Assembly (NCBI GenBank): GCA_017446585.1
Contig: JAFSQL010000002.1
Location: forward strand, 29,084 to 93,083
DNA: 64,000 nucleotides
Source of the DNA: Paludibacteraceae bacterium
GTDB taxonomy: Bacteria > Bacteroidota > Bacteroidia > Bacteroidales > Paludibacteraceae
Reading direction: 5' to 3'
Both the position numbers and the translations under genes were made by a program. This document shows positions 9,027 to 52,529 of the stretch, piece after piece (position 1 is the first letter of the stretch; each line of letters begins with the position of its first letter). The notes under the pieces are model-generated. The model searched no databases. It worked only from the letters and a program-made list of their open reading frames with translations, and was not told where the DNA came from.

Positions 9027-11123
9027 ATGAAGAGAATAACACTACTGACACTTTTTAGTCTCGTTTTCACATTGACGAGCCTTGCTGCCACCAATACCAT
9101 TCTTGAATCGAAAAGCATCAGTTGCCATGGCATGGCAGACGGAGAACTCACATTCTCCGCTTCCGACCCTGCCGCTGCCGCATCCTACAAATACATGTGG
9201 TACCACGGCGCAGGAACCGACTCTCTGCTCACCAACTACTCCGACAGCAAGAGTTGTCCCGTGGCAAAAATGCTCTCGGCAGGCACTTACCACCTCATAG
9301 TCACCCTCGCTGATTCTACCATTTTGGACAGCACCTACACCCTCAAGCAACCGGATGCCATTTCGCTCGAACCCGTGTCAGTCACACACTGCTCCCATTG
9401 GGGGGCCAACCTCACCGATTGCAACGGAGCCATCAGTTTCACCGTGAGCGGCGGCATCTCTCCCTACTCCTATACTGTCTATGACTCCATCTACCAAATC
9501 ACCTACGCTAACAAAAGCAACCTCACCAACTTAGCGTCAGGCAACTATGACATCAGCGTCATTGACGCCAGCGGATGCACCCATGACACCGTCATCGAAA
9601 TCAAGAATAACGCCAACGGTGACTTGGGACTGCCACAAGGCATCCAATATATATGTTATCGCTCCTCGGGAAGCAATTCCATTTCCCTGCAACTGGATGA
9701 CATTTATTCTGAAACCGTGATGTGGGAAGAAGATGTTGAAAACCAAGAAACCGCCCTCTCCTATGTCCTCACCAAGGAAGCTTCTGAAGCCACGGCAGGC
9801 TACAATGGCAACGATGTCATTCGCACTTATCAGACGAAGTGGAAAACAGTCTCCGTCTATGACTCCATTACCGCCACCAGCCACGACAGCGTCATCTACT
9901 GGGTTGACACCTTCTTGCGCTACATGGCGGTCATTGACAAGAACGACGGCTCTGGCACTCAAATCGTGCTCTCCGCCACAAAGAATCTGTATTCCAAAAA
10001 TCCTCCCAAAGCCATGTTTCTCACGACGGGTCTCGTTCTTGACTCACTCATTGCTGAAGATGCCGCTCGATTCGGAAAAGACGTGTGGGGAAGAATCCCG
10101 TCAACCAAGGAATCAACAGGTTCTAAGACTGCCATGGAACCGGGTCTGCACAAGGTTCGCTACTGGGACAGCAATGGAAACGGCGGACGAAGCAGTTGGA
10201 CCATCATTGCCGCTGAATCGCCCGTGACGCTCAACGTCACGGAGACAAAGGTCAACAAATGCTTCCATGACACCATTGCCGCCATAACTGCCACAGCACA
10301 AGGCAGTTGGCAAGAAGATCCGAGCGCAAAGCATGACATTGCGCTTTCGCTCTCTGCAGTGGCAGGAACGGGGGCATCAATGGCAAAGGTCATCTCTCCA
10401 GGCTCTTCCAATGGCAATGGTTTGAACACAAACTCGTGGTCCAACCTCCCTGCCGGAATATACACCGTCAACGCCTCCATATCATCACCAACCGGCACCG
10501 CAGGTTCCTGCACATGCAGTCGCCAACAAAGCATTGAAATAACGCAACCGGACAGCCTCTATATCGTTTTCACCAACTCCAAGAAGGCTACATGCCCTTA
10601 CAAGAGCGACGCCTTTGTCACTGCCGACGTAGTCAATGCTCAAGGAAAAGTCTCCTACTCTTGGAGTAACGGCAGCACTGCGGCATCGGCGGCGGACATC
10701 ATGATGGGCAGTTACACGTTGACCGCTACCGACCAAAACGGTTGCACCGCTACCGACTCCATCTCATTGGGCGTGTCGCGCAAGAACTGCATCTACAATA
10801 TCGTCACACCTAACGGTGACGGATGCAACGACCTCTTTGACCTCACCGACTTCTGCATGGGATTCAAGATGAAGTGCAACATCTTTGACAACAACGGTCG
10901 AAAAGTGGCAACGTTGGACGAGAACAACTCCACTTGGGACCCACGTGAAGACACCTATGCGCCCCCTACCGGTCAAACCTCCAACTACACGGCATTCATT
11001 CGATTGATTAACACTGACGGCAAACGCATCGCTGACTTGGCGGAGACATTCTCCGTCATCTATGCTGACTACCCGAACCTCTCCACCACCCCTTGCAGCG
11101 AATCCGAATCCCAATGGTTCTAA
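9027..11123 (+). CDS. T9SS type-B C-terminal sorting domain protein with SprB-like repeats (gliding-motility-associated CTD family adhesin)
   Basis: Signal peptide. Cys-containing SprB-type repeats (CHGMADGELTF, CNGAISFTVSGG, ASGCTHD). C-terminal NIVTPNGDGCNDLFDL motif typical of the type-B CTD. Confidence 0.8.
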   Translation: MKRITLLTLFSLVFTLTSLAATNTILESKSISCHGMADGELTFSASDPAAAASYKYMWYHGAGTDSLLTNYSDSKSCPVAKMLSAGTYHLIVTLADSTILDSTYTLKQPDAISLEPVSVTHCSHWGANLTDCNGAISFTVSGGISPYSYTVYDSIYQITYANKSNLTNLASGNYDISVIDASGCTHDTVIEIKNNANGDLGLPQGIQYICYRSSGSNSISLQLDDIYSETVMWEEDVENQETALSYVLTKEASEATAGYNGNDVIRTYQTKWKTVSVYDSITATSHDSVIYWVDTFLRYMAVIDKNDGSGTQIVLSATKNLYSKNPPKAMFLTTGLVLDSLIAEDAARFGKDVWGRIPSTKESTGSKTAMEPGLHKVRYWDSNGNGGRSSWTIIAAESPVTLNVTETKVNKCFHDTIAAITATAQGSWQEDPSAKHDIALSLSAVAGTGASMAKVISPGSSNGNGLNTNSWSNLPAGIYTVNASISSPTGTAGSCTCSRQQSIEITQPDSLYIVFTNSKKATCPYKSDAFVTADVVNAQGKVSYSWSNGSTAASAADIMMGSYTLTATDQNGCTATDSISLGVSRKNCIYNIVTPNGDGCNDLFDLTDFCMGFKMKCNIFDNNGRKVATLDENNSTWDPREDTYAPPTGQTSNYTAFIRLINTDGKRIADLAETFSVIYADYPNLSTTPCSESESQWF

Positions 11124-11167
11124 TCGCTGTGGATTTAACTGAAGACATATAATTATAGCCCATATAA

Positions 11168-12085
11168 TTGATGAAACAATTCGCTATTCTAATCTCGTTT
11201 TTAGTCTTGAGTGTTTCCGTCTCGGCACAACGCATCTGGGGCAATCCCATCGGACCTTACCCCTACTCACCAGCGGGAGCCAACGTCAACGACCTTGGTG
11301 AAATCGTCGCCACCTATCACCGCAACTACGCCTCCGCCAACAACGCCCCTCAAGGAGCCATGCTCATGGGTAGCACCTCACTCCCTTATGACAATATGGG
11401 AGCGGGTTTTCGTTTCGACTACGAGACGGGCGGTGTCCTGAAAAACGTCATGGCAGAAGCCACCTACGTCTATAAAATCAACCTTGGCAGCAACAACAAA
11501 CTCGGCTTGGCAGTGAGTGGTACCTACAACCAAACCTCTATTGACAACTCCGCCCTGAACCCACAACATCACTACGACCCGTTTCTCATCTATGCTGCCG
11601 ATGGAGATCAATGGTTTGACGTGAACGTGGGAGCGTCACTCTACAAGCCCAACCACTACTACTTTGGATTGGGTTTCTACAACCTCGTTGGCAACTCCAC
11701 GACGTGGAAAATCCAAGGGTTCGATGCCCGCACGGCGCGCCAAGGGGTCGTGACAGGCATGTACACCCTGCACACGTTCAATGGTGACTTGAATTGGGAA
11801 GCGACCGGACACCTCATGCTCTACTTTCCACAAGACTCAACGCTCACGCCTGTCTATGACATCAACTTGCGTGCCATTGTGCGTAAGGTGTTCTGGTTAG
11901 GCGGTGGCTACACTAACAACATGGTCAAGGCTCTGGGAGGCATCTACTTCCAAAACTTAGCCGTTGGCTATGCCTGCGGAATCGGCATTGGCGACATCAC
12001 GGACTATACCTATCTTTGTCCGCGTCATGAACTCATGTGCCGATTGGAACTCAACACATCCAAAAAGTCAAAAAACAAACGCTAA
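11168..12085 (+). CDS. PorP/SprF-family type IX secretion membrane protein (putative)
   Basis: Signal peptide, about 300 aa and beta-rich. It sits directly downstream of a type-B CTD gene, the canonical pairing. I did not verify a strong family motif. Confidence 0.6.
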   Translation: MMKQFAILISFLVLSVSVSAQRIWGNPIGPYPYSPAGANVNDLGEIVATYHRNYASANNAPQGAMLMGSTSLPYDNMGAGFRFDYETGGVLKNVMAEATYVYKINLGSNNKLGLAVSGTYNQTSIDNSALNPQHHYDPFLIYAADGDQWFDVNVGASLYKPNHYYFGLGFYNLVGNSTTWKIQGFDARTARQGVVTGMYTLHTFNGDLNWEATGHLMLYFPQDSTLTPVYDINLRAIVRKVFWLGGGYTNNMVKALGGIYFQNLAVGYACGIGIGDITDYTYLCPRHELMCRLELNTSKKSKNKR

Positions 12086-29066: not shown

Positions 29067-29105
29067 GAAAGTCTTCCTTCACATGCGAAAGAAGACTTTC
29101 TTTTT
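29067..29105. terminator. Bidirectional terminator between convergent genes
   Basis: GAAAGTCTTC ... GAAGACTTTC, a 10-bp stem flanked by an A-run and a T-run. Confidence 0.7.
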
Positions 29106-43886: not shown

Positions 43887-45398
43887 TCATTCCCCGTTCA
43901 ATTCCAAGACTTTCCGAAAACAAGCAATTCCCTCCTCCAGATTCTCGATTATCTTGGCGGCAATCTCATCAGGCTCGGGCAGGTTGTCAAGGTCGGTAAG
44001 GCTCTTGTCCTTTATCCAAAAAATATCGAGATTGGTTTTGTCGCGGGCGATTATCTCGTCGTAGGTGAACTTGCGCCAACGGCCTTCGGGATTCGACTCG
44101 CTCCACGTTTCGGTGCGCAGATTGCGGTTTTCTGGATTGTAGCACTTAATGAAATCTGCCAAATCCTCGAACGTGAGCGGCGACTTCTTAAGTGTGTGGT
44201 GAATGTTGGTGCGGTAGTCATAAATCCAAATGTCCTTGGTCTGCACATCCTTGCTGGCTGGGCGGTTATCGAAGAACAAAACATTGGCTTTCACGCCATT
44301 GGCATAGAAAATGCCTGTTGGCAGGCGCAGAATGGTGTGCAACTCGGTGGTTTTCATCAGTTGCTTGCGAATCTCCTCGCCCGCACCGCCTTCAAAAAGC
44401 ACATTGTCGGGCAGGACAACTGCCGCCTGACCATTGATTTTCAGCAAGGTCTTGATATGCTGAAGGAAATTCAACTGCTTGTTGGACGTGGTTTCCCAAA
44501 AATCCTGACGGTTGTAACTCAAATCCTCTTTCTCCACCTCGCCGTCCACGTTGGTAATGGTGATGCTGCTCTTTTTGCCGAAAGGCGGATTGGTGAGCAC
44601 ATAGTCGTAGCGGTTGCCTGTGTCGGACACAAGGGCATCGTTGGGCGAAATGAAATCCTCGCTGTCGAGTTCGCCAATGTTGTGCAGATAAAGGTTCATC
44701 AAGCACAGACGGCGCGTGTTGGCCACAATCTCGTTACCAAAGAAGGTCTTTTTCTTCAGAAACAGTTTCTGGTCTTTGTTGAGCGGCTGGCTGGCGATAT
44801 AGTCGTAGGCGGCAAGGAAGAAACCACCCGTTCCGCAGGCTGGGTCGATAATGGTCTTTTCGGGTTTGGGACGCACGCACGCCACCATAGCACGAATCAA
44901 CGCACGGGGCGTAAAATATTGTCCTGCACCGCTCTTGGTATCTTCGGCGTTCTTCTCCAAAAGGCCTTCGTAAATCTTGCCCTTCACATCGGAACCCATC
45001 AGCGACCAATTCTCGCGGTTGATCATCTCAATGACGCGCAAGAGTTTGGCAGGGTCTTGAATCTTGTTCTGGCTCTTGGTGTAAATCTGTCCCAACATTC
45101 CTTTTTCGGTGGCAAGGCTGCGAAGCATCTGCACATAGTAGGCTTCGAGTTCCGCACCGCGCTTGCTTGTGAGCGTTTCCCAATCGCACATTTCGCCATC
45201 GGCAATCTCCTTGCCCTCGGCATCCTTCAAGTGCGGGAACCTCAGTCCTTTGTTGTAGGGCGGACGGTTCATCTCGTCGGCCATCTTCAGGAAAAGCAGA
45301 TAGGTGATTTGCTCCAAATAATCGCCATAACTTACGCCATCGTCGCGCAGGACGTTGGCCATATTCCAGATTTTTGATATGATTGTTGATTCTGTCAT
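43887..45398 (-). CDS. hsdM: Type I restriction-modification system, DNA methyltransferase subunit M
   Basis: N-terminal HsdM_N (IWNMANVLRD...YLEQITYLLFLK), AdoMet motif DPACGTGGF and catalytic NPPFG. Start set at ATG 45398. Confidence 0.9.
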   Translation of the reverse strand: MTESTIISKIWNMANVLRDDGVSYGDYLEQITYLLFLKMADEMNRPPYNKGLRFPHLKDAEGKEIADGEMCDWETLTSKRGAELEAYYVQMLRSLATEKGMLGQIYTKSQNKIQDPAKLLRVIEMINRENWSLMGSDVKGKIYEGLLEKNAEDTKSGAGQYFTPRALIRAMVACVRPKPEKTIIDPACGTGGFFLAAYDYIASQPLNKDQKLFLKKKTFFGNEIVANTRRLCLMNLYLHNIGELDSEDFISPNDALVSDTGNRYDYVLTNPPFGKKSSITITNVDGEVEKEDLSYNRQDFWETTSNKQLNFLQHIKTLLKINGQAAVVLPDNVLFEGGAGEEIRKQLMKTTELHTILRLPTGIFYANGVKANVLFFDNRPASKDVQTKDIWIYDYRTNIHHTLKKSPLTFEDLADFIKCYNPENRNLRTETWSESNPEGRWRKFTYDEIIARDKTNLDIFWIKDKSLTDLDNLPEPDEIAAKIIENLEEGIACFRKVLELNGE

Positions 45399-45414
45399 AA
45401 ATTCTTGTCTGTCT

Positions 45415-46119
45415 TTACAATCCATAATACAATTTAATGGCGACACCGACAAATATTGCTATTGAAAAGCTCAACAATGTGCCTATCAATACATATTCCG
45501 ATTTCGCCTTGTCGCCTTCGGCAAAACGCAAAAGTGATTTTGCGGCTATGATAAATCCAACGGCTTCATATTGTCCCAGTAGCACAAACACCAACGAAAG
45601 AAGCCGTTCCACAATACCTATCAGTTTTCCGGCATTAGGCAAGTCTTCTGTATTATTATCGTCACTTCCTTTGCTAACCTTAATGTTTGCAACCTTGATA
45701 ATTTCTTTGATTATTATGTTGGAGGGCTTTAAACATACCAGAAAGCCCAACAACATAGCTATATATTTTTCTTCTACACCGCTCACACAATCAGGTAAGT
45801 TGCTTTTCCACAGATAGCAAACCGTCACAATTACAAGCAAGTGTATCAACTGGTCAATAAAGAAAATACCCTTACACTTGGAAGCATAACATTTCATGGC
45901 ATCGATTAGCAAATGAGAAACCGCTATTATTAATGCCACCCACCAAAAACTGAATGAAAACGAGAACAGCCAAGCGCAAACAAAGGTTATCAGAACATGT
46001 ATATAAAGTTTCGGAGACTTAAAAACTCTGTTTTCTTTGTCGGCGCACGACTTATCTGTCTGAAAATAGAAATCACTGATCGTGTGTGCAATTATTTGTA
46101 ATAGTAAAAACCGTATCAT
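45415..46119 (-). CDS. DUF3307-family polytopic membrane protein
   Basis: About 7 hydrophobic segments. N-terminal QIIAHTISDFYFQ plus later SHLLIDA and IDQLIHL His/Asp motifs, as recalled for DUF3307. Adjacent to a SatD-like gene, the usual pairing. Confidence 0.6.
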   Translation of the reverse strand: MIRFLLLQIIAHTISDFYFQTDKSCADKENRVFKSPKLYIHVLITFVCAWLFSFSFSFWWVALIIAVSHLLIDAMKCYASKCKGIFFIDQLIHLLVIVTVCYLWKSNLPDCVSGVEEKYIAMLLGFLVCLKPSNIIIKEIIKVANIKVSKGSDDNNTEDLPNAGKLIGIVERLLSLVFVLLGQYEAVGFIIAAKSLLRFAEGDKAKSEYVLIGTLLSFSIAIFVGVAIKLYYGL

Positions 46120-46121
46120 AA

Positions 46122-46814
46122 CTAAAAGTTTATTTGTTCGTAATACTTCAGCAACTGCTCTACAGCATTCCAGCCAAATGAGGTGGAATGTTGATTAACA
46201 GCAGGTTGCTTAATCCCCATTTTTTTGGATATTTCAATTTCGCTCATTCCTAACAGACTATAATATATAACCTCACATTGACGCTCCGATGCTCGCTTAA
46301 ACAGTATATCCAAAAAACCCATATACGCATTTATCTGCTGCGCCAATTTTGCATCCGAAGAATCAAAAAACAAGGTGTTTTTTATAACTATTTTCGATTT
46401 GTTCGAAGTCCGCTGGCGTTCTATTGCCCTTCCTGAGGCATATATGGCCTCACCATCCAACATATTTGTCCGCTTATCGGCAATGCGCATTTCACCTACA
46501 GCAATGGCGATTCTAACCCCGTATGTTTTAAACACACTCAAACGCTTCTTATCTACATTTTGACCCACACAGTCTGTATCAACCTTGAACTTTTTTATCA
46601 TCGCTTTTAAAAGCAGGGCTATACGCAATGAGTTTTGTGGATTACCTATATAAATTTCCACACTATCACCTTTGCTTAATCGGCCCCATGTGTCTTCGTA
46701 TTCTTTTTCTATTTGCTCAACAAAGACCTCTATCTCGTTCTGCAATTGACTTAAAGCACAAGGAGTCAGTTCGGTAGAAGACACTATGTCCGCTGAAATT
46801 GTAGCTCTATTCAT
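46122..46814 (-). CDS. SatD-family protein: cyclase-fold-like N-terminal domain plus C-terminal helix-turn-helix
   Basis: ISADIVSST and KGDSVEIYIG resemble the two Asp motifs of class III cyclase / SatD proteins. RIAIAVGEM...DGEAIYASGRAI block. C-terminal ERQCEVIYYSLLGMSEIEISKKMGIKQPAVNQH resembles a LuxR/sigma-70 region-4-type HTH. ATG 46814 preferred over the TTG at 46832. Confidence 0.6.
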   Translation of the reverse strand: MNRATISADIVSSTELTPCALSQLQNEIEVFVEQIEKEYEDTWGRLSKGDSVEIYIGNPQNSLRIALLLKAMIKKFKVDTDCVGQNVDKKRLSVFKTYGVRIAIAVGEMRIADKRTNMLDGEAIYASGRAIERQRTSNKSKIVIKNTLFFDSSDAKLAQQINAYMGFLDILFKRASERQCEVIYYSLLGMSEIEISKKMGIKQPAVNQHSTSFGWNAVEQLLKYYEQINF

Positions 46815-46829
46815 AAATTTTATTTTTTG

Positions 46830-46837
46830 CAAAGATA
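46830..46837 (-). promoter_or_regulatory. -7 promoter box (TAtcTTTG) for the satD-like/DUF3307/hsdM transcription unit
   Basis: The reverse complement of caaagata is TATCTTTG, 15 nt upstream of ATG 46814 and 6 nt downstream of repeat unit 1. Confidence 0.5.
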
Positions 46838-46843
46838 CTAAAT

Positions 46844-46926
46844 TTTATAAGCTAAACAACTTATAAACATAATTTATAAGCTAAACAACTTATAAACTGC
46901 ATTTATAAGCCAAACGGCTTATAAAT
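46844..46926. repeat. Three 25-bp palindromic units phased every 29 bp (putative operator array)
   Basis: Units at 46844-46868 and 46873-46897 are identical (TTTATAAGCTAAACAACTTATAAAC). The unit at 46902-46926 is TTTATAAGCCAAACGGCTTATAAAT. Each carries inverted arms TTATAAG(C)...(G)CTTATAA. Confidence 0.85.
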
Positions 46927-46929
46927 TCC

Positions 46930-48063
46930 TCACACTAACTCCCCGCTAAACGCCTTCTTGAGTATGCTTTGCCTGAGTGCCTCGGCTTGTTGCAGTGCGT
47001 TTTCAATGTAGGTTTCGCTTGCCGTTGCCTGCGACAGGCGCGATTCGATTTCCTTTACTATGCGCTGCTGCTCAGCGAGCGGGGGAAGGGGGATTTCGAT
47101 TAAACGAACTTTTTTTATTCCAAAAGCGGCTTGCGTTGTCGCTTTTTTTCCATCAAATAGCTGTTTCTCAACAATATTAGACCTAAATGTATTATACAAA
47201 AATTTTGCGTTTATCTTGTCTGTTGGTTGAATTAATACCACATTTGCCGATAATGCATACTCTTGCGGAAGAATAACATTGACGGGATTTCCAATTGTAC
47301 CGATTTTTCCTATTATAAAGTCACCTTCTTTTATAGAATACCTCTCTTTATGCTCTTTAAGAACATCTTTTGAAACCAGTCTTGCATTTTTTAAATTTAT
47401 GGTATTCGTTATGTAATCACAATCCTTAATGCTGACAAAAGGTATTCCATCTTTTTGTATTTTAGGCGTTCTATGACTTGGCTCTGGATCAATTGCATCC
47501 GCCACATCTCCCAACTTCACCATCTCCCATTTCCCCTCGTCATTATTCAGCCAATGGTTGAGCACGGCCTGCCTGTAGGTTTTGAGTTGTTGCTGTGCGG
47601 TGCGAAGGTGCTGCACGGCCTTGTCGAGTTCGGCGAAAAGGGTTTCTATGCGGGTTTCTATGGCGTGCTGGGTGGCGAGTGGGGGAAGGGGAATTTGCAA
47701 GTCTTCCGCGTTGTTTATAGTAACTTGTGGCTGTGCTGTCCCTGTAACCAACTTGGTTTTATTAGTTGCTTGTAATGTATAATACAAATACTTTTTGTTG
47801 ACCTTATTTTCCTCTTTAGGTGTGATTACCAATGAATTATTCGTAATAAAGCACTGTTTAGGCGAAATGTTGATTTTACCACTATATGCCCCTCGACAAG
47901 AGATTAAGACCTGTTCTTCTTCATATAGAAAAGAATCATAATATCCTATTATTCCATTTGCACCAAATACTGGGAATCCTTTGGGTTTCAAATTTTTTGT
48001 AGGCAATCCTTTCCCATATACGATTCCACAAATTTCGCCTAATTTATATGTTGGGTAATTCAT
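46930..48063 (-). CDS. hsdS: Type I restriction-modification system, specificity subunit S
   Basis: Two target-recognition domains separated by conserved helices (LPPLATQHAIETRIETLFAELDKA...; LPPLAEQQRIVKEIESRLS...LRQSILKKAFSGELV). Confidence 0.9.
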   Translation of the reverse strand: MNYPTYKLGEICGIVYGKGLPTKNLKPKGFPVFGANGIIGYYDSFLYEEEQVLISCRGAYSGKINISPKQCFITNNSLVITPKEENKVNKKYLYYTLQATNKTKLVTGTAQPQVTINNAEDLQIPLPPLATQHAIETRIETLFAELDKAVQHLRTAQQQLKTYRQAVLNHWLNNDEGKWEMVKLGDVADAIDPEPSHRTPKIQKDGIPFVSIKDCDYITNTINLKNARLVSKDVLKEHKERYSIKEGDFIIGKIGTIGNPVNVILPQEYALSANVVLIQPTDKINAKFLYNTFRSNIVEKQLFDGKKATTQAAFGIKKVRLIEIPLPPLAEQQRIVKEIESRLSQATASETYIENALQQAEALRQSILKKAFSGELV

Positions 48064-48653
48064 TTCAAGGTATTATTGTTAATGTCATCTGACAGCATTA
48101 CGTATGTGTTTCCTAAAATAACAAGAATGAAAATAATGAATTGAAAACTCCAATAATAGATAACGCCATTTATAGCATATTTACAGATTGTTCGGATTAT
48201 ATCCCCATATCCACACAAATTAAGTCGTGGAACTTGTGGTGAGAAATATATTACCGCCATTAGGAATATGAGTAATAGAGCCAAAACAATTGTGTATGAT
48301 ATTTGGCGTATTAAAAATTTTGAAAAATTCCTATAACGAATCAGATAGTTTCTTGCTTCTTCATTTTTGTCATCCTTCAATTGTTCTTTTTTTGCATTGT
48401 ACCGTTCTGTTACGATAAATAACAATCCGAAAAACAACCCAGCAAAAATGCTAATGCTGGTTATTAAATACGTGGCTATATCATTAGTTATAAAAATACC
48501 TGCAACAAGTAATAATGCACATACGAGCAATGGCAAGACATACATATAAAGCACGTATGTTTTGCTTTCCTCACGAGCGTTATCATCTTTGTATTTTAAT
48601 GATTCAAACGCCTCCTTTCTGATTTCTAATATTCTTATTTTAGTCCACATCAT
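48060..48653 (-). CDS. Hypothetical four-TM membrane protein (cargo ORF-B)
   Basis: Four hydrophobic segments with a K/E-rich cytoplasmic loop. ATGA overlap with the hsdS start and 14-nt overlap with ORF-A. No recognisable family. Confidence 0.55.
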   Translation of the reverse strand: MMWTKIRILEIRKEAFESLKYKDDNAREESKTYVLYMYVLPLLVCALLLVAGIFITNDIATYLITSISIFAGLFFGLLFIVTERYNAKKEQLKDDKNEEARNYLIRYRNFSKFLIRQISYTIVLALLLIFLMAVIYFSPQVPRLNLCGYGDIIRTICKYAINGVIYYWSFQFIIFILVILGNTYVMLSDDINNNTLK

Positions 48654-49617
48654 TTGGTGTATATCCTATTTCTTTTTTTATCTTCTCTAAGATTGCATCT
48701 GTATGCTCCCTTATTTTCCCATAATCAGGATATTGCTTACCATTTTCTTTCAAACTCTCTGGCAAAATTATATTTGGCAGAATATCAAGATTTCTAGACA
48801 AACGCGCTTGCGATTGCCGTCCTGATTCATCTTTATATGTTGCAATTACATCATAATCATGTCCCTCAGCATTCATCTCAAAAGAAGACAAATCAGCATC
48901 TATTGGCTGATTTTTATCCACCTGTTTCCAAAATTCTTCTATTGGAACATCAAATCCTGAAATTTTTATTTCAACTTTCAATCCTTCAAATGACGCAAAT
49001 AACTGGTTCAATGCACCTCTTGCTTTCTCGCTCATCTTTGTTTTTGATAATATCAAATTTTGGACTATGCTTTTTTTCTTAAATTTTTCCTTATATTCTT
49101 TCGGAACGTACTTCATTTTGTCAACTGAATAGCCATAACCTCTGATAAAAGATTTTATCTTCTGCTCTATCAAAGAAACCACACCAACTTCTGTATAACT
49201 TTGAACCATCAAAACACCATGGTCTAAATCATACGGCATCCATAACTTAAAATAGTATGGTAGTGTAGAAACTTCATCATCCGAAATAGACTTACCAATA
49301 GACTTTGAACTGGAAGATTTATAAACATCTTGCTCTACTCCTGTAAGTCCGCCAACCAACATACCATCTATAATATTCATTTGTGGCATTGAATTAACAG
49401 ATTGAACCGCAATTGCTTTTGTTTCCTCCCTGTTTTTTATAAACTTATCGTTAAAAGACTTTATAAACAGATTATTAAACTTACTAAAGGCTGCGTTTTT
49501 ATCTGTTTCAGAAGTAACGTCTTTCAACATATCTTTATAAGTAACAGGGTCTTTACTTGCTGTTTTCTTAATGACAAATTGATATATTGTCAACTTCAAA
49601 GTGTAACCTTTCTCCAT
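48640..49617 (-). CDS. Hypothetical soluble protein, 325 aa (cargo ORF-A)
   Basis: Long uninterrupted ORF in an AT-rich segment, co-oriented with and overlapping ORF-B. No TM segment, no Walker A, no nuclease or HEPN motif seen by eye. Confidence 0.55.
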   Translation of the reverse strand: MEKGYTLKLTIYQFVIKKTASKDPVTYKDMLKDVTSETDKNAAFSKFNNLFIKSFNDKFIKNREETKAIAVQSVNSMPQMNIIDGMLVGGLTGVEQDVYKSSSSKSIGKSISDDEVSTLPYYFKLWMPYDLDHGVLMVQSYTEVGVVSLIEQKIKSFIRGYGYSVDKMKYVPKEYKEKFKKKSIVQNLILSKTKMSEKARGALNQLFASFEGLKVEIKISGFDVPIEEFWKQVDKNQPIDADLSSFEMNAEGHDYDVIATYKDESGRQSQARLSRNLDILPNIILPESLKENGKQYPDYGKIREHTDAILEKIKKEIGYTPNDVD

Positions 49618-49672
49618 ATTTATATTTTTTGTGCAAACCGTAGTTACGTAAATTCAACAAAATCATTGTTTT

Positions 49673-49703
49673 ATAATTGTGCAACCACTGGTTGCACAAT
49701 TAT
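49673..49703. promoter_or_regulatory. Perfect 14-bp inverted repeat with 3-nt spacer between hsdR and ORF-A
   Basis: ATAATTGTGCAACC-ACT-GGTTGCACAATTAT. A related half-site TTGTGCAAACC lies at 49629-49639. No U-tract follows on either strand. Confidence 0.6.
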
Positions 49704-49727: not shown

Positions 49728-52529
49728 TCATGCTACTAATATTTCATTTAGTTCCTCAATTATCGCCATCATCTCGTTACCAAACAGCTGATACATCTTG
49801 CCTCGTCCGCCTTGGGCGTCGAAAGGGGTGTAGTCCAAATCGTCAATGTCAAGGTGGTAACTGCTCACAATGTGGTCTTTTATCATTCGCAGCCATTCAA
49901 TCTGCTCGGGCGTGAAGCGGTTGCGGTTACCCGTGTGCTGGCGGAACAGCCACGCGTTGAAATTCCGCTCAATGGTGTTGTTGAAGGCCTCAAGACTTTG
50001 GTCAATGCCGCAGGCGTGGCGCACCAACGAAACCAATGCCGTAAGTTCCGTAACAGGGCGGTTGGCTTTCACCTTCTCAATAGCACAATAGGCATCCCAA
50101 ACGTACATCGGTGCTAACATCGGCTTGTCCTGCTTCAGTTTTTCGAGCAACTCCTGCGCCATCTGAAGGGTGAGATTGCGGTGGTTGTAGGGCTGGTTGT
50201 AGAAAATGCTCAACGCCATAATCTCGTCTTTATGCTGTTCCAAATACTCGGTGAAATCGTGCACCGTCTCTTTCGCCTTTTCGAGTGTGAAACTGTTGAA
50301 CTCGCTTTTCAGCACCGTGTCAAGGTTCACGGTGTCTATCTTCTGGTCGTGCAGGTTGCGCACGGTCACAATGTATTCGTTCAACTCGCCGTTGAAGGTG
50401 CTGCTGGCAACATCAGCCAAACGCTGCTGCGCCTTTCTGCGTATCTCATCCTCAATGGCGGGGGTTAGTTCGGTTGGCGGAATCTTTTTCAGTTCTGCCT
50501 GCGCTGCGTCGTCGATTTTGTCAGGGTCGAAAGCCGATAGCAGTTCGGCACTCATCTGCCCCAACGTCTTACCCCGCGACAAGGTTTCTATCTTTTCCTT
50601 CTCTTTTTCGGTAACCTCTTTGTTCAATCGAATCAAGCGATTGGCCAACGAAGTGAACAAATCTTCTTCCGTCACGCCCATAGTGACAGCACCCAACAAA
50701 TCTTTCAGCGGAACGGTGGGCTTGCGTTCCAACGGTCGACTGTCGGTTTTCTTGGTCTGCGTCACGCCCACGGCATCCACAATCACAAAATGCGTTTTGG
50801 TCTGCGCCGTGCGGCTCACCAATTGCAGCGAGTCGGGGTTTATGGTTCGTGTGCCACGGCCCTTCATCTGCTCGAAATAGTTGGCACTGCGCACATCGCG
50901 CATAAAGAGCAGTACTTCGAGCGGCTTCACGTCGGTGCCTGTGGCTATCATATCCACCGTGACGGCAATGCGCGGATAATATTGGTTGCGGAAGCGGTTG
51001 AGCACCGATTTGGGGTCCTCATCAATCTTGTAGGTTACCTTCTTGCAGAAGTCGTTGCCTTCGTCGAACTCCTCACGCACAATCTTGATAATGTCGTCGG
51101 CGTGGCTGTCGGTCTTGGCGAAAATGAGCGTCTTGGGCACTTCGTACTGCCCGCTCTCATCGTAGCGGTTCGGGAAAATCTCCTCCATCAGCGCCTTGCG
51201 GAACTGGCGGATAACGGTGCGTATCTGGCTCGGATTCACCACCGAACGGTCCAAATCGTTCTTTTTATATTCGGTGTCCTCATCCACCTGCTGCCAACGG
51301 GTTTTGCGAGTGGCTTTGTCACGATAGTCGATATGCCATCCCGCCTTGATTAGCCCGCCGTTTTTCGATATTTCCGTTTCAATGGAATAGACATCGTACG
51401 GCACATTCACGCCATCCACCACTGATTGCTCGTAGGTGTATTCGCTCACCACATTTTCGTTGAAGAAGCCGAAGGTGCGCTTGTCGGGCGTGGCGGTCAG
51501 ACCGATAAGGAACGCATCGAAATAGTCGAGCACCTGTTTCCAAAGGTTGTAAATGCTGCGGTGGCACTCATCAATCACCACAAAATCAAACTGCTCAATA
51601 GGCACTTTGGCGGTGTATTCCACAGGAATGGCTTGCTGGTCCTTCAGTCTCTGCTGCAGCCACGACGATTCGTTCGGGTTGTCGGTTTCGGCGGATTCGT
51701 CCAACTCTTCGCCTTTCAGAATCGAATAAAGCCTTTGTATGGTGGAAATGCACACTTGACTATCATTGGCAATGTAACTCGACGAGAGCCGTTGCACATT
51801 GTAGAGTTCGGTGAACTTGCGGTTGTCGTCGTTCGGGCGGAAGTTCATAAATTCCTGTTCCGCCTGTTCGCCCAAATTGCGTGTATCTACAAGAAACAGA
51901 ATACGTTTGGCCTTGGCGAATTTCAGCAGACGGTAAATGAACGTGATAGCAGTGAAAGTCTTGCCCGCACCCGTCGCCATCTGAATCAGCGCCCGCGGGC
52001 GGTTATTGCGGAACGATTCTTCGAGATTCGTCACCGCCTTAATCTGTGCTGGTCGAAGTCCCGTTGTGTCAAGTGCAGGAAAGTCCTGCAAACGGCATCG
52101 AAGGCTCATGCCGTTGCACATCCATTCGGCAAAAGTTTCGGGTCGGTGAAACGCAAACACCACACGGCTGCGGGGTTTGGGGTCGCTGTAGTCGGTGAAG
52201 TGGGTCAACGTGCCTGTTGTTTCATAAACGTAGTTCAGTGGCTCGTTGTTCAGGTATTTCAGCTTGGCATTAGCATACCGCACCGATTGCTCCTCAACCA
52301 CAGTGATATTGACAGCTTCCTCCTCGCGTTTCGCCTCGATAATGCCCATAGGTTTGCGGTTAACAAACAGCACATAGTCGGCGGGTCCAGCATCGGTCTG
52401 ATACTCACGAACCGCCACACCAATTCCCGCCGAAAAGTCTATCTTGCTTTTCGACTGAATCTTCCAACCTGCCTGTTCAAGCAGACTGTCGATTTTATCG
52501 CGTGCTATCTGTTCGGGGTTTTGATTCAT
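49728..52529 (-). CDS. hsdR: Type I restriction-modification system, endonuclease subunit R
   Basis: N-terminal HSDR_N region (ARDKIDSLLEQAGW), helicase motif I MATGAGKT, DEAD-like VIDECH, motif III TATP, and an EcoEI_R_C-like C-terminus. Start set at ATG 52529. Confidence 0.9.
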   Translation of the reverse strand: MNQNPEQIARDKIDSLLEQAGWKIQSKSKIDFSAGIGVAVREYQTDAGPADYVLFVNRKPMGIIEAKREEEAVNITVVEEQSVRYANAKLKYLNNEPLNYVYETTGTLTHFTDYSDPKPRSRVVFAFHRPETFAEWMCNGMSLRCRLQDFPALDTTGLRPAQIKAVTNLEESFRNNRPRALIQMATGAGKTFTAITFIYRLLKFAKAKRILFLVDTRNLGEQAEQEFMNFRPNDDNRKFTELYNVQRLSSSYIANDSQVCISTIQRLYSILKGEELDESAETDNPNESSWLQQRLKDQQAIPVEYTAKVPIEQFDFVVIDECHRSIYNLWKQVLDYFDAFLIGLTATPDKRTFGFFNENVVSEYTYEQSVVDGVNVPYDVYSIETEISKNGGLIKAGWHIDYRDKATRKTRWQQVDEDTEYKKNDLDRSVVNPSQIRTVIRQFRKALMEEIFPNRYDESGQYEVPKTLIFAKTDSHADDIIKIVREEFDEGNDFCKKVTYKIDEDPKSVLNRFRNQYYPRIAVTVDMIATGTDVKPLEVLLFMRDVRSANYFEQMKGRGTRTINPDSLQLVSRTAQTKTHFVIVDAVGVTQTKKTDSRPLERKPTVPLKDLLGAVTMGVTEEDLFTSLANRLIRLNKEVTEKEKEKIETLSRGKTLGQMSAELLSAFDPDKIDDAAQAELKKIPPTELTPAIEDEIRRKAQQRLADVASSTFNGELNEYIVTVRNLHDQKIDTVNLDTVLKSEFNSFTLEKAKETVHDFTEYLEQHKDEIMALSIFYNQPYNHRNLTLQMAQELLEKLKQDKPMLAPMYVWDAYCAIEKVKANRPVTELTALVSLVRHACGIDQSLEAFNNTIERNFNAWLFRQHTGNRNRFTPEQIEWLRMIKDHIVSSYHLDIDDLDYTPFDAQGGRGKMYQLFGNEMMAIIEELNEILVA

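Follow-up and report, generated by a model that had tools for sequence, protein, structure and literature searches.

The 64,000-nucleotide stretch examined here (the window), positions 29,084 to 93,083 of contig JAFSQL010000002.1 from a Paludibacteraceae bacterium, carries on its minus strand a compact, co-directional type I restriction-modification (R-M) operon in which a pair of genes lies between hsdS and hsdM. The gene order is hsdR, a gene for a 325-aa protein, a gene for a 197-aa protein with four transmembrane (TM) segments, hsdS, a satD-like gene, a DUF3307 gene and hsdM (Table 1). The satD-like gene and its DUF3307 neighbour are 2 nt apart (TAG tt ATG), and 16 nt separate the DUF3307 stop codon from the ATG at 45398, which is most likely the hsdM start. 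As this gap leaves no room for a promoter, hsdM is presumably co-transcribed with the inserted pair. Three features that the initial annotation of this locus did not contain bear on the role of the pair, namely an operator array in front of satD, an empty-site indel in related operons, and a strict pairing of the two genes in mostly non-R-M contexts. The G+C content of hsdM and hsdR is about 50%, the same as in the window overall, and that of the 45.4-49.7 kb segment holding the cassette, hsdS and the cargo genes is 31-40%. The low G+C at 45400-49700 would fit modules that were acquired or exchanged separately.

Table 1. Features of the operon in the window, and cargo found between hsdR and hsdS in sister operons (coordinates refer to the sequence named in the second column)
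Feature	Sequence	Coordinates	Strand	Remarks
hsdM	window	43887..45398	-	503 aa from ATG 45398
Cassette	window	45399-46929		satD-like and DUF3307 genes with upstream region
DUF3307 membrane protein gene	window	45415..46119	-	234 aa, 7-8 TM
satD-like gene	window	46122..46814	-	230 aa; N-terminal class III cyclase fold (modelled), C-terminal sigma-70 region 4 / LuxR-type helix-turn-helix (predicted)
Helix-turn-helix part of satD	window	46182..46289	-	residues ~176-211 of 230; recognition helix KQPAVNQHST
-7 promoter box TAtcTTTG (Bacteroidetes-type, predicted)	window	46830..46837	-	16-23 nt upstream of satD ATG
Operator O1 (proximal, predicted)	window	46845..46866	-	dyad TTATAAGTTGTTTAGCTTATAA; probable overlap with expected -33 region
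Operator O2 (predicted)	window	46874..46895	-	dyad TTATAAGTTGTTTAGCTTATAA
Operator O3 (distal, predicted)	window	46903..46924	-	dyad TTATAAGCCGTTTGGCTTATAA; starts 5 nt past hsdS stop codon
hsdS	window	46930..48063	-	stop codon abuts operator O3
hsdR-hsdS variable cargo slot	window	48060..49617	-	325-aa soluble and 197-aa 4-TM proteins; outside cassette, same operon scaffold
197-aa 4-TM protein gene	window	48653-48060	-	overlaps 325-aa protein gene
325-aa protein gene	window	49617-48640	-	
hsdR	window	49728..52529	-	933 aa counted from ATG
Cargo	L013	5566-8408		Lamassu LmuA/LmuB
Cargo	L018	4885-6012		PD-Lambda-2_B-like helix-turn-helix and M78 peptidase
Cargo	L019	1086-3501		RhuM (PDC-S05) and RelA/SpoT-like protein (PDC-S33)
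Cargo	L021	5093-8575		PD-Lambda-2_B-like helix-turn-helix and M78 peptidase; Ser/Thr kinase (PD-T4-6-like)
Cargo interval	L023	2302-4383		
Cargo	L052	4923-8600		Schlafen/AlbA_2 ATPase

The insertion between hsdS and hsdM, which had been proposed from the gene order, is borne out by two metagenome contigs (L098 and L099) that carry empty-site sister operons. In both, the hsdM start is the same as in the window (MTESTIISKIW) and comes 27 nt after hsdS, and nucleotide identity to the window is 78% for hsdR, 91% for the genes of the 325-aa and 197-aa proteins and 85% for hsdM. As these operons join hsdS to hsdM without the cassette, the cassette is an indel that fits exactly between the stop codon of hsdS and the ATG of hsdM, and the R-M system can do without it. 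Comparison of the cassette borders with the empty site revealed no target-site duplication or terminal repeats, and no sign of a mobility mechanism. The position of satD is constant in the seven loci that share the complete architecture of the window, and this position is empty in L098 and L099.

The start of the satD-like gene follows from its promoter. A mechanical open reading frame (ORF) call begins at TTG 46832 and yields 236 aa, but this codon lies inside the putative -7 box (46830-46832), so ATG 46814 is taken as the real start. With 230 aa, the product then matches its homologues in length, as well as the gene called on the identical metagenome contig L096; both this length and the 2-nt gap agree with what the initial annotation had given. 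Several database homologues of 236-272 aa probably share the same N-terminal over-extension. Tool outputs are numbered along the 236-aa ORF, and the residues of the 230-aa protein are those numbers minus 6. All the peptides quoted in the initial annotation were recovered, ISADIVSST, KGDSVEIYIG, RIAIAVGEM, DGEAIYASGRAI and MSEIEISKKMGIKQPAVNQH in the ORF ending at 46122, and AHTISDFYFQ, SHLLIDA and IDQLIHL in the ORF 46119-45415. Both genes are judged to be real because homologues are numerous, with 951 for the SatD-like and 2785 for the DUF3307 protein at E <= 1e-3, and 1453 clusters of SatD-like proteins in a profile search that covered 1.84 billion representatives (E <= 1e-3, clustering at 50% identity).

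The 115-nt spacer from the hsdS stop (46930) to the satD ATG contains a tandem array of three 29-bp units, and every unit has a TTATAAG-N8-CTTATAA dyad with arms of 8-11 bp. This dyad pattern has three matches in the whole 64-kb window, all of them in the hsdS-satD spacer, and none is expected from shuffled sequence. The predicted -7 box lies 7 nt past the O1 dyad unit and is followed by a 15-nt leader and the satD ATG; it conforms to TAnnTTTG, the established Bacteroidetes -7 consensus of Bacteroides promoters, and it is conserved as TAGTATCTTTGCAAAAAA in the sister loci. A sigma-70 promoter/terminator scan, which is uninformative for Bacteroidetes, found no terminator at either cassette junction. 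Similar arrays were found well beyond this operon. Of 80 species-level loci taken from GTDB representative genomes, 79 could be evaluated, and in 51 of these satD is preceded by an array of two or more similar dyads at 26-33-bp spacing; among other intergenic regions of these loci, the count is 8 of 353. A SatD gene whose product is recognized by Pfam likewise has two ATAAG-N8-CTTAT sites in front of it. Judged by its sequence, such an array carries the signature of a dimeric helix-turn-helix (HTH) autoregulator, which would bind it.

A suitable DNA-binding domain is present in the product of satD. The C-terminal HTH named in the initial annotation corresponds to sub-threshold GerE and Sigma70_r4_2 matches at residues 182-217 of the 236-aa ORF, which are stronger in homologues and indicate the sigma-70 region 4 / LuxR type, and the AlphaFold (AF2) model has three helices in this region. 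Operator half-sites differ by clade, as compared by eye in per-locus tables: a QSAVNQH recognition helix occurs with TTATAAG, a QSVVNQH helix with TTATCGG/TTATAGG...CCGATAA, in an R-M-embedded clade and a V-ATPase clade alike, and an RPGVNQN helix with AGTAAGC...GCTTACT. The half-sites appear to track the recognition helix of the HTH, and the HTH stretch is the most divergent part of satD among the sister operons. Relative to sister operon L022, nucleotide identity is 73-84% in satD (66% in the bin with most of the HTH), 93-99% in DUF3307 and 83-87% in hsdM; relative to L013, which has the same operator type as the window, satD identity is 81-96% throughout. As satD is divergent against L022 and kept against L013 with its shared operator type, operators and satD appear to have been exchanged as a unit. 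At the protein level, the segment 44900-47100 compared with L013, L018, L019 and L021-L023 has identities of 94-98% for HsdM, 79-88% for SatD and 82-97% for DUF3307. Identity changes abruptly at the boundary of satD and DUF3307, a sign of recombination at this point.

The assignment of the 230-aa protein to SatD, made by the initial annotation from motifs, stands at the level of the superfamily and fails at the level of the Pfam model. For SatD (PF16264, gathering score 29 bits), the window protein gives no match at a limit as loose as E <= 10, and scans with NCBIfam, PADLOC, PHROG and Pfam returned only weak HTH matches. None of the best 120 homologues has a precomputed Pfam domain. Several of them are named ‘RNA polymerase subunit sigma-70’ by NCBI; a sigma-factor identity was rejected, as the protein has nothing of a sigma factor beyond a region 4-like HTH and the target sites show dyad symmetry. 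Within the profile search, 15 of 45 sampled members match PF16264 at E <= 0.01, and of ten members scanned individually nine match the model, only one of them (42.6 bits) above the 29-bit cut-off. Decisive for membership is the profile-profile comparison of the window clade with the nine Pfam-positive SatD proteins (hhalign, probability 100%, E 2.6e-51), which spans 209 columns and covers both domains. By this comparison, the window protein falls in a Bacteroidales branch that diverges within the SatD superfamily and escapes the Pfam model. It shares with the Pfam SatD proteins the two-domain architecture and the motifs xxISGDIVxS, RGDS/xE, RxxIGxG, DGEAxxxSGR and QxAVNQ. Unlike canonical SatD, the window branch has a helical insert of about 20 residues between alpha3 and beta4, and unlike the typical SatD/DUF3307 pair, the window pair is embedded in an R-M operon. 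The family of pairs ranges over Bacteroidota and Pseudomonadota, with founding members in Firmicutes. The founding sat genes belong to a ‘secretion and acid tolerance’ operon of Streptococcus mutans that also contains ffh, as cited in PMC11323703 and PMC13492114. Literature searches on SatD, DUF3307 and their Pfam/InterPro accessions found no paper on either family, the results being swamped by ‘satDNA’. Some homologues are long (P0170, P0183, P0199, P0200 and P0211, 472-626 aa), with an extension C-terminal of the HTH; in two sampled cases this extension matches tetratricopeptide repeat (TPR) families, which recalls cyclase-TPR-LuxR multidomain regulators.

The suggestion that the N-terminal domain resembles class III nucleotidyl cyclases is supported by structure prediction. 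The AF2 model of the SatD-like protein is of good quality (pLDDT 88.5, pTM 0.89), and a Foldseek search of the PDB with it placed class III adenylyl/guanylyl cyclases at ranks 1-32 and 34-46, with E values of 2.4e-5 to 1e-3 and target TM-scores up to 0.56. GGDEF domains and the Pycsar cUMP synthase PycC (7r65, rank 50, E 1.3e-3) are lower in the list. The N-terminal domain is thus modelled with a class III cyclase fold, a palm of the order beta-alpha-alpha-beta-beta-alpha-beta. Class III cyclases carry two metal-binding aspartates, one where beta1 ends and one in the hairpin of beta2 and beta3. In the model, D15 is likewise placed at the end of strand beta1 (E9-16) and G55-D56 in the beta2-beta3 hairpin (E48-53 / E57-62), with an arginine at the start of beta4. 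Conservation of the two motif aspartates had been named as a check, and they are conserved: D15, G55, D56, R107, G113, G127, A129 and G134 are invariant across 45 diverse sequences down to 23% identity, D15 and G55-D56 also in 23 close sequences and in the nine Pfam-positive SatD proteins, and the counterparts of all eight residues are invariant in the Pfam-positive set. In the 230-aa protein, the two aspartates and R107 are D9, D50 and R101. A local hhalign comparison with the C1/C2 domains of the adenylyl cyclases AC5 and AC8 (four mammalian domains, with sequences checked against the PDB) is not significant (E 0.15) and gives the register D15=D396, D56=D440 and R107=R484 of AC5 C1; the global mode was meaningless. 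An ungapped alignment of GEAIYASGR with GNTVNVASR would match R135 to R1029. The metal and triphosphate half of the cyclase active site appears to be conserved in SatD and the remainder not; the SatD-like protein probably binds NTP-Mg2+.

The membrane partner is readily assigned. DUF3307 (PF11750) matches residues 5-104 with 88.1 bits (cut-off 23, E 6e-25), in agreement with the family named in the initial annotation, and the roughly seven TM helices claimed there correspond to six strongly hydrophobic segments and two weaker helices, or 7-8 TM. Invariant residues in TM1-4 are H12, D16, Q20, H41, H69, D73, D89, Q90 and H93. The C-terminal 4-TM half (105-234) is strongly conserved as well; in relaxed Pfam searches with the whole protein, this half and three homologues, the C-terminal half matches no family. 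The protein is almost wholly membrane-embedded, and Pfam scans found no cyclic nucleotide (cNMP)-binding, SAVED, CARF or other known sensor domain. Its structure model is poor (pLDDT 60), Foldseek returned nothing below E = 2 and PDB sequence searches gave no match. One phage family matches the DUF3307 N-domain.

The two genes form a widespread pair, as the initial annotation had stated. DUF3307 follows satD in 76 of the 80 species-level loci, at -56 to +11 nt, and three of the four loci without it end at a contig edge. The fourth, L046, is the only locus without a partner among 77 evaluable: its DUF3307 gene (10711-10822) has an internal deletion that joins residues 1-13 to 206-229, with satD and the V-ATPase genes on either side undamaged. 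The pairing extends to the Pfam-positive locus L094 and to a gammaproteobacterial (Salinivibrio) plasmid, both with DUF3307 directly after satD. In about 13 of the 80 loci, the pair lies in type I R-M operons or beside hsdM relics. Seven have the order of the window (hsdR, variable cargo, hsdS, satD, DUF3307, hsdM), including L052 with only 48% SatD and 69% HsdM identity; L016 is a partial R-M-embedded locus, and L067, with the order hsdR, pair, hsdM, hsdS, belongs to an unrelated R-M family (29% HsdM identity). In all nine of these loci, the pair is directly upstream of hsdM. Four further loci have the pair beside an N-terminal hsdM fragment of 51-94 aa. Relic loci of this kind (L001-L004, L014, L015, L017, L024) have an intact pair and the 51-94-aa fragment just past DUF3307, and hsdR and hsdS are gone. 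In the relic loci, the cassette has outlived the R-M system.

A second setting is shared by about 20 of the 80 loci, where the cassette, with its own dyad operators, is inside a V-type ATPase operon between DUF2764 and atpA. V-ATPase-embedded Bacteroidales loci are L008-L012, L031-L051 and L054 (about 10001-11400 in each), and they represent a second, unrelated mid-operon location. For the remaining 43 loci, 148 immediate neighbours were scanned, and these are mostly housekeeping genes (chorismate enzymes, ABC transporters, Mfd, radical SAM, peptidases) with few defence genes among them (type III methylase, Cas7b/Cas8b, AbiEii, CARF regulator). The initial annotation had proposed a survey of defence settings; in this sample, most loci lie outside them. 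SatD family members are rare on plasmids (3/72,556) and absent from the phage genomes searched.

The best-supported reading of these observations is an autoregulated SatD transcription factor with a DUF3307 membrane partner in a cassette that here also controls hsdM, a reading to which a probability of about 0.5 is given. SatD dimers would bind the three 29-bp-spaced sites through the C-terminal HTH, and binding at O1, which should overlap the -33 region, would repress the promoter. Repression would set the level of satD, DUF3307 and, at this locus, hsdM, much as an R-M controller such as RptR or a C protein does. The cyclase-fold domain may serve as signal input, linking binding or turnover of NTP/Mg2+ to dimerisation, and it may communicate with DUF3307. 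By inference, this divergent SatD/DUF3307 pair serves as a regulatory cassette within an R-M operon. The earlier proposal of either a conflict-related role or regulation of methylase expression thus fares unequally: three dyads, a promoter and the 16 nt to hsdM support regulation, and most loci are outside defence contexts. As the family occurs mostly outside R-M systems, hsdM control would be a local consequence and not the purpose of the family.

Several points weigh against this interpretation. Operator binding by SatD, repression, co-transcription of hsdM, the ligand and the role of DUF3307 are all inferred, and the regulatory model assigns DUF3307 no defined role. No terminator was found between hsdS and satD, and read-through from hsdR, cargo and hsdS could supply hsdM independently. 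The operator dyads are AT-rich, and 28 of the 79 loci fail the strict array criterion, some of them through misplaced start codons. The family's predominance outside R-M systems also counts here. As to the proposed input domain, similarity to cyclases is not significant at the sequence level: Guanylate_cyc (PF00211) has no Pfam match in the SatD-like protein, a PDB sequence search with the family profile gave no cyclase match, and the hhalign result is as stated above. Unlike in class III cyclases, the position of the transition-state residue Asn1025, in the register proposed above, is Tyr in the window clade and Gln in canonical SatD, and no conserved base-specifying Lys/Asp pair was identified in the close, diverse or Pfam-positive alignments.

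The principal competing notion is that of a housekeeping membrane or ion-homeostasis module that hitch-hikes in the operon. SatD/DUF3307 would sense or repair a membrane, pH or ion condition, the R-M site would be neutral, and SatD may still autoregulate. The cassettes in V-ATPase operons, the 43 loci with mostly housekeeping neighbours and the founding sat genes in an acid tolerance operon (PMC11323703 and PMC13492114) all point this way, as do the conserved His4/Asp3 cluster in TM1-4 of DUF3307, which is typical of a metal site, and the near absence from plasmids and absence from phages. This notion, plausible in itself, remains doubtful, given that at least three lineages, one of them an unrelated R-M family, have the pair directly beside hsdM (L052, L067), that the pair persists beside hsdM N-terminal fragments after R-M decay, and that 13 of 80 loci with hsdM adjacency or relics looks far above chance, which is an impression and not a formal statistic. 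The persistence of the pair may also be viewed from another side, as that of an addiction module resembling toxin-antitoxin systems, in which DUF3307 is a toxic membrane protein, SatD its transcriptional repressor and antidote, and the cassette stabilises the host operon. In a transposon-sequencing (Tn-seq) meta-analysis of Streptococcus pyogenes, satD is the only ‘essential accessory gene’, essential where present and missing from 29% of genomes (PMC11323703), consistent with such a function; however, the S. pyogenes satD neighbour was not confirmed as a DUF3307 protein. The layout is toxin-antitoxin-like, with two translationally coupled, apparently autoregulated genes of which the regulator comes first, decay of the neighbouring R-M system leaves the pair intact, and L046 lost DUF3307 and kept SatD, the converse being invisible in a sample ascertained by SatD. 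Yet DUF3307 is large, highly conserved and 8-TM with catalytic-looking residues, unlike small membrane toxins, the V-ATPase operon position is stable across about 20 species and the family is rare on plasmids, making addiction unlikely.

The initial annotation had pointed to signal-generator plus TM-effector systems such as Pycsar and CBASS. On this account, SatD would make a nucleotide second messenger upon infection and thereby activate DUF3307 to damage the membrane. In its favour are the class III cyclase fold with PycC 7r65 among the Foldseek matches, the conservation of both putative metal-binding aspartates and of the R484 and R1029 equivalents, the membrane protein as partner (Pycsar likewise encodes its cyclase PycC beside the multi-TM PycTM), and the recurrent embedding in type I R-M operons whose other slot has Lamassu, PD-Lambda-2-like, RhuM/RelA-SpoT and kinase cargo. 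That slot, however, differs in position from the constant satD slot. PADLOC matches neither protein, DUF3307 lacks any recognizable nucleotide-sensing domain, the cyclase-like protein, unlike that of Pycsar, is joined to an HTH with matching operator arrays, the contexts of most loci are unrelated to defence, and the transition-state Asn and the base-specifying residues are not conserved. CBASS is defined by a CD-NTase, a Pol-beta-type nucleotidyltransferase, and the SatD fold is modelled as a class III cyclase palm. A cyclase-like protein beside a TM protein in a defence locus is insufficient to call a Pycsar-like system; the analogy is poorly supported, abortive infection of this type is very improbable, and the regulatory alternative is favoured over it. 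Most likely, the cassette regulates itself and the expression of the methylase and is not a suicide system based on cyclic nucleotides. A bolder extension, improbable though less so, is that SatD is an enzymatically active cyclase-fold transcription factor and DUF3307 reports envelope perturbation (phage DNA injection, membrane depolarisation), altering NTP turnover or dimerisation such that SatD leaves its operators. The methylase of a Bacteroidales type I R-M system would then be infection- or stress-responsive or, in a stronger variant, the pair would be a new cyclase-signal and membrane-effector defence system.

Regulation by an autoregulated SatD cassette has a close functional parallel in RptR, a 79-aa single-domain four-helix repressor encoded directly upstream of hsdM, which binds three palindromic repeats (6-bp palindromes) in its own promoter (PMC12255303). 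The E. coli type I R-M / DarTG2 islands in which RptR occurs carry cargo in the hsdS-hsdR interval, and RptR is also known beside non-R-M modules (PMC12255303). In the window, satD is likewise on the promoter-proximal side of hsdM, three repeated palindromic sites are in its own promoter (at least two in about two-thirds of homologues), sister operons have defence cargo in the interval of hsdS and hsdR, and the regulator also occurs beside non-R-M modules. The likeness is functional, with binding and repression by SatD being predicted, and SatD is structurally unrelated to RptR, having 230 aa, a cyclase-fold domain and an HTH, 22-bp dyads and an obligate membrane partner. The C proteins of type II R-M systems are small HTH autoregulators that use dyad operators at their own promoter to set the timing or level of R-M expression, and they fall into operator/recognition-helix specificity classes. 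SatD resembles them in its HTH and in its dyad operators at its own promoter in an R-M setting. C proteins differ in being Xre/cI-type, in usually preceding the endonuclease gene, in having two operators and in lacking a sensor domain or membrane partner; downstream of the SatD cassette lies the hsdM of a type I system. As a regulator gene in an R-M operon with at least two repeated palindromes in its own promoter, satD would belong with the R-M controllers, which are a functional class and not a homology family. The combination of a cyclase fold with an HTH also has precedent, since the M. tuberculosis protein Rv0386 is a multidomain cyclase-(ATPase)-TPR-LuxR HTH protein, and long SatD homologues, like the Rv0386-type cyclases, have TPR repeats.

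Should SatD control hsdM, it would represent a second route, structurally unrelated to RptR, to transcriptional control of type I R-M islands, and the first such regulator with an obvious sensor domain. If the infection-responsive reading is true, SatD would be a sensor-equipped counterpart of RptR. The locus provides the large SatD/DUF3307 family with a testable anatomy of cyclase fold and HTH, operator arrays and an obligate membrane partner, and a clean presence/absence polymorphism of the cassette inside an otherwise near-identical type I R-M operon.

Outside the cassette, the sister operons of this family have a hotspot of variable cargo between hsdR and hsdS (Table 1), which also holds a HATPase-like protein with a weak, sub-threshold match. 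The operon reads as a defence scaffold with one variable slot. In the window, this slot holds the 325-aa and 197-aa proteins, for which no Pfam, PADLOC or PHROG assignment was obtained; the 4-TM protein has weak matches only (TIGR01218 tandem-5TM and a bacteriocin-immunity phrog). Since their slot holds known defence systems in sister operons, the two are candidates for an uncharacterised defence pair. The pair recurs in L098/L099 (6001-7558) at 88-90% identity, together with an extra 356-aa gene, and in L100 (1-1288) two ORFs come after the gene of a 59% relative of the 325-aa protein.

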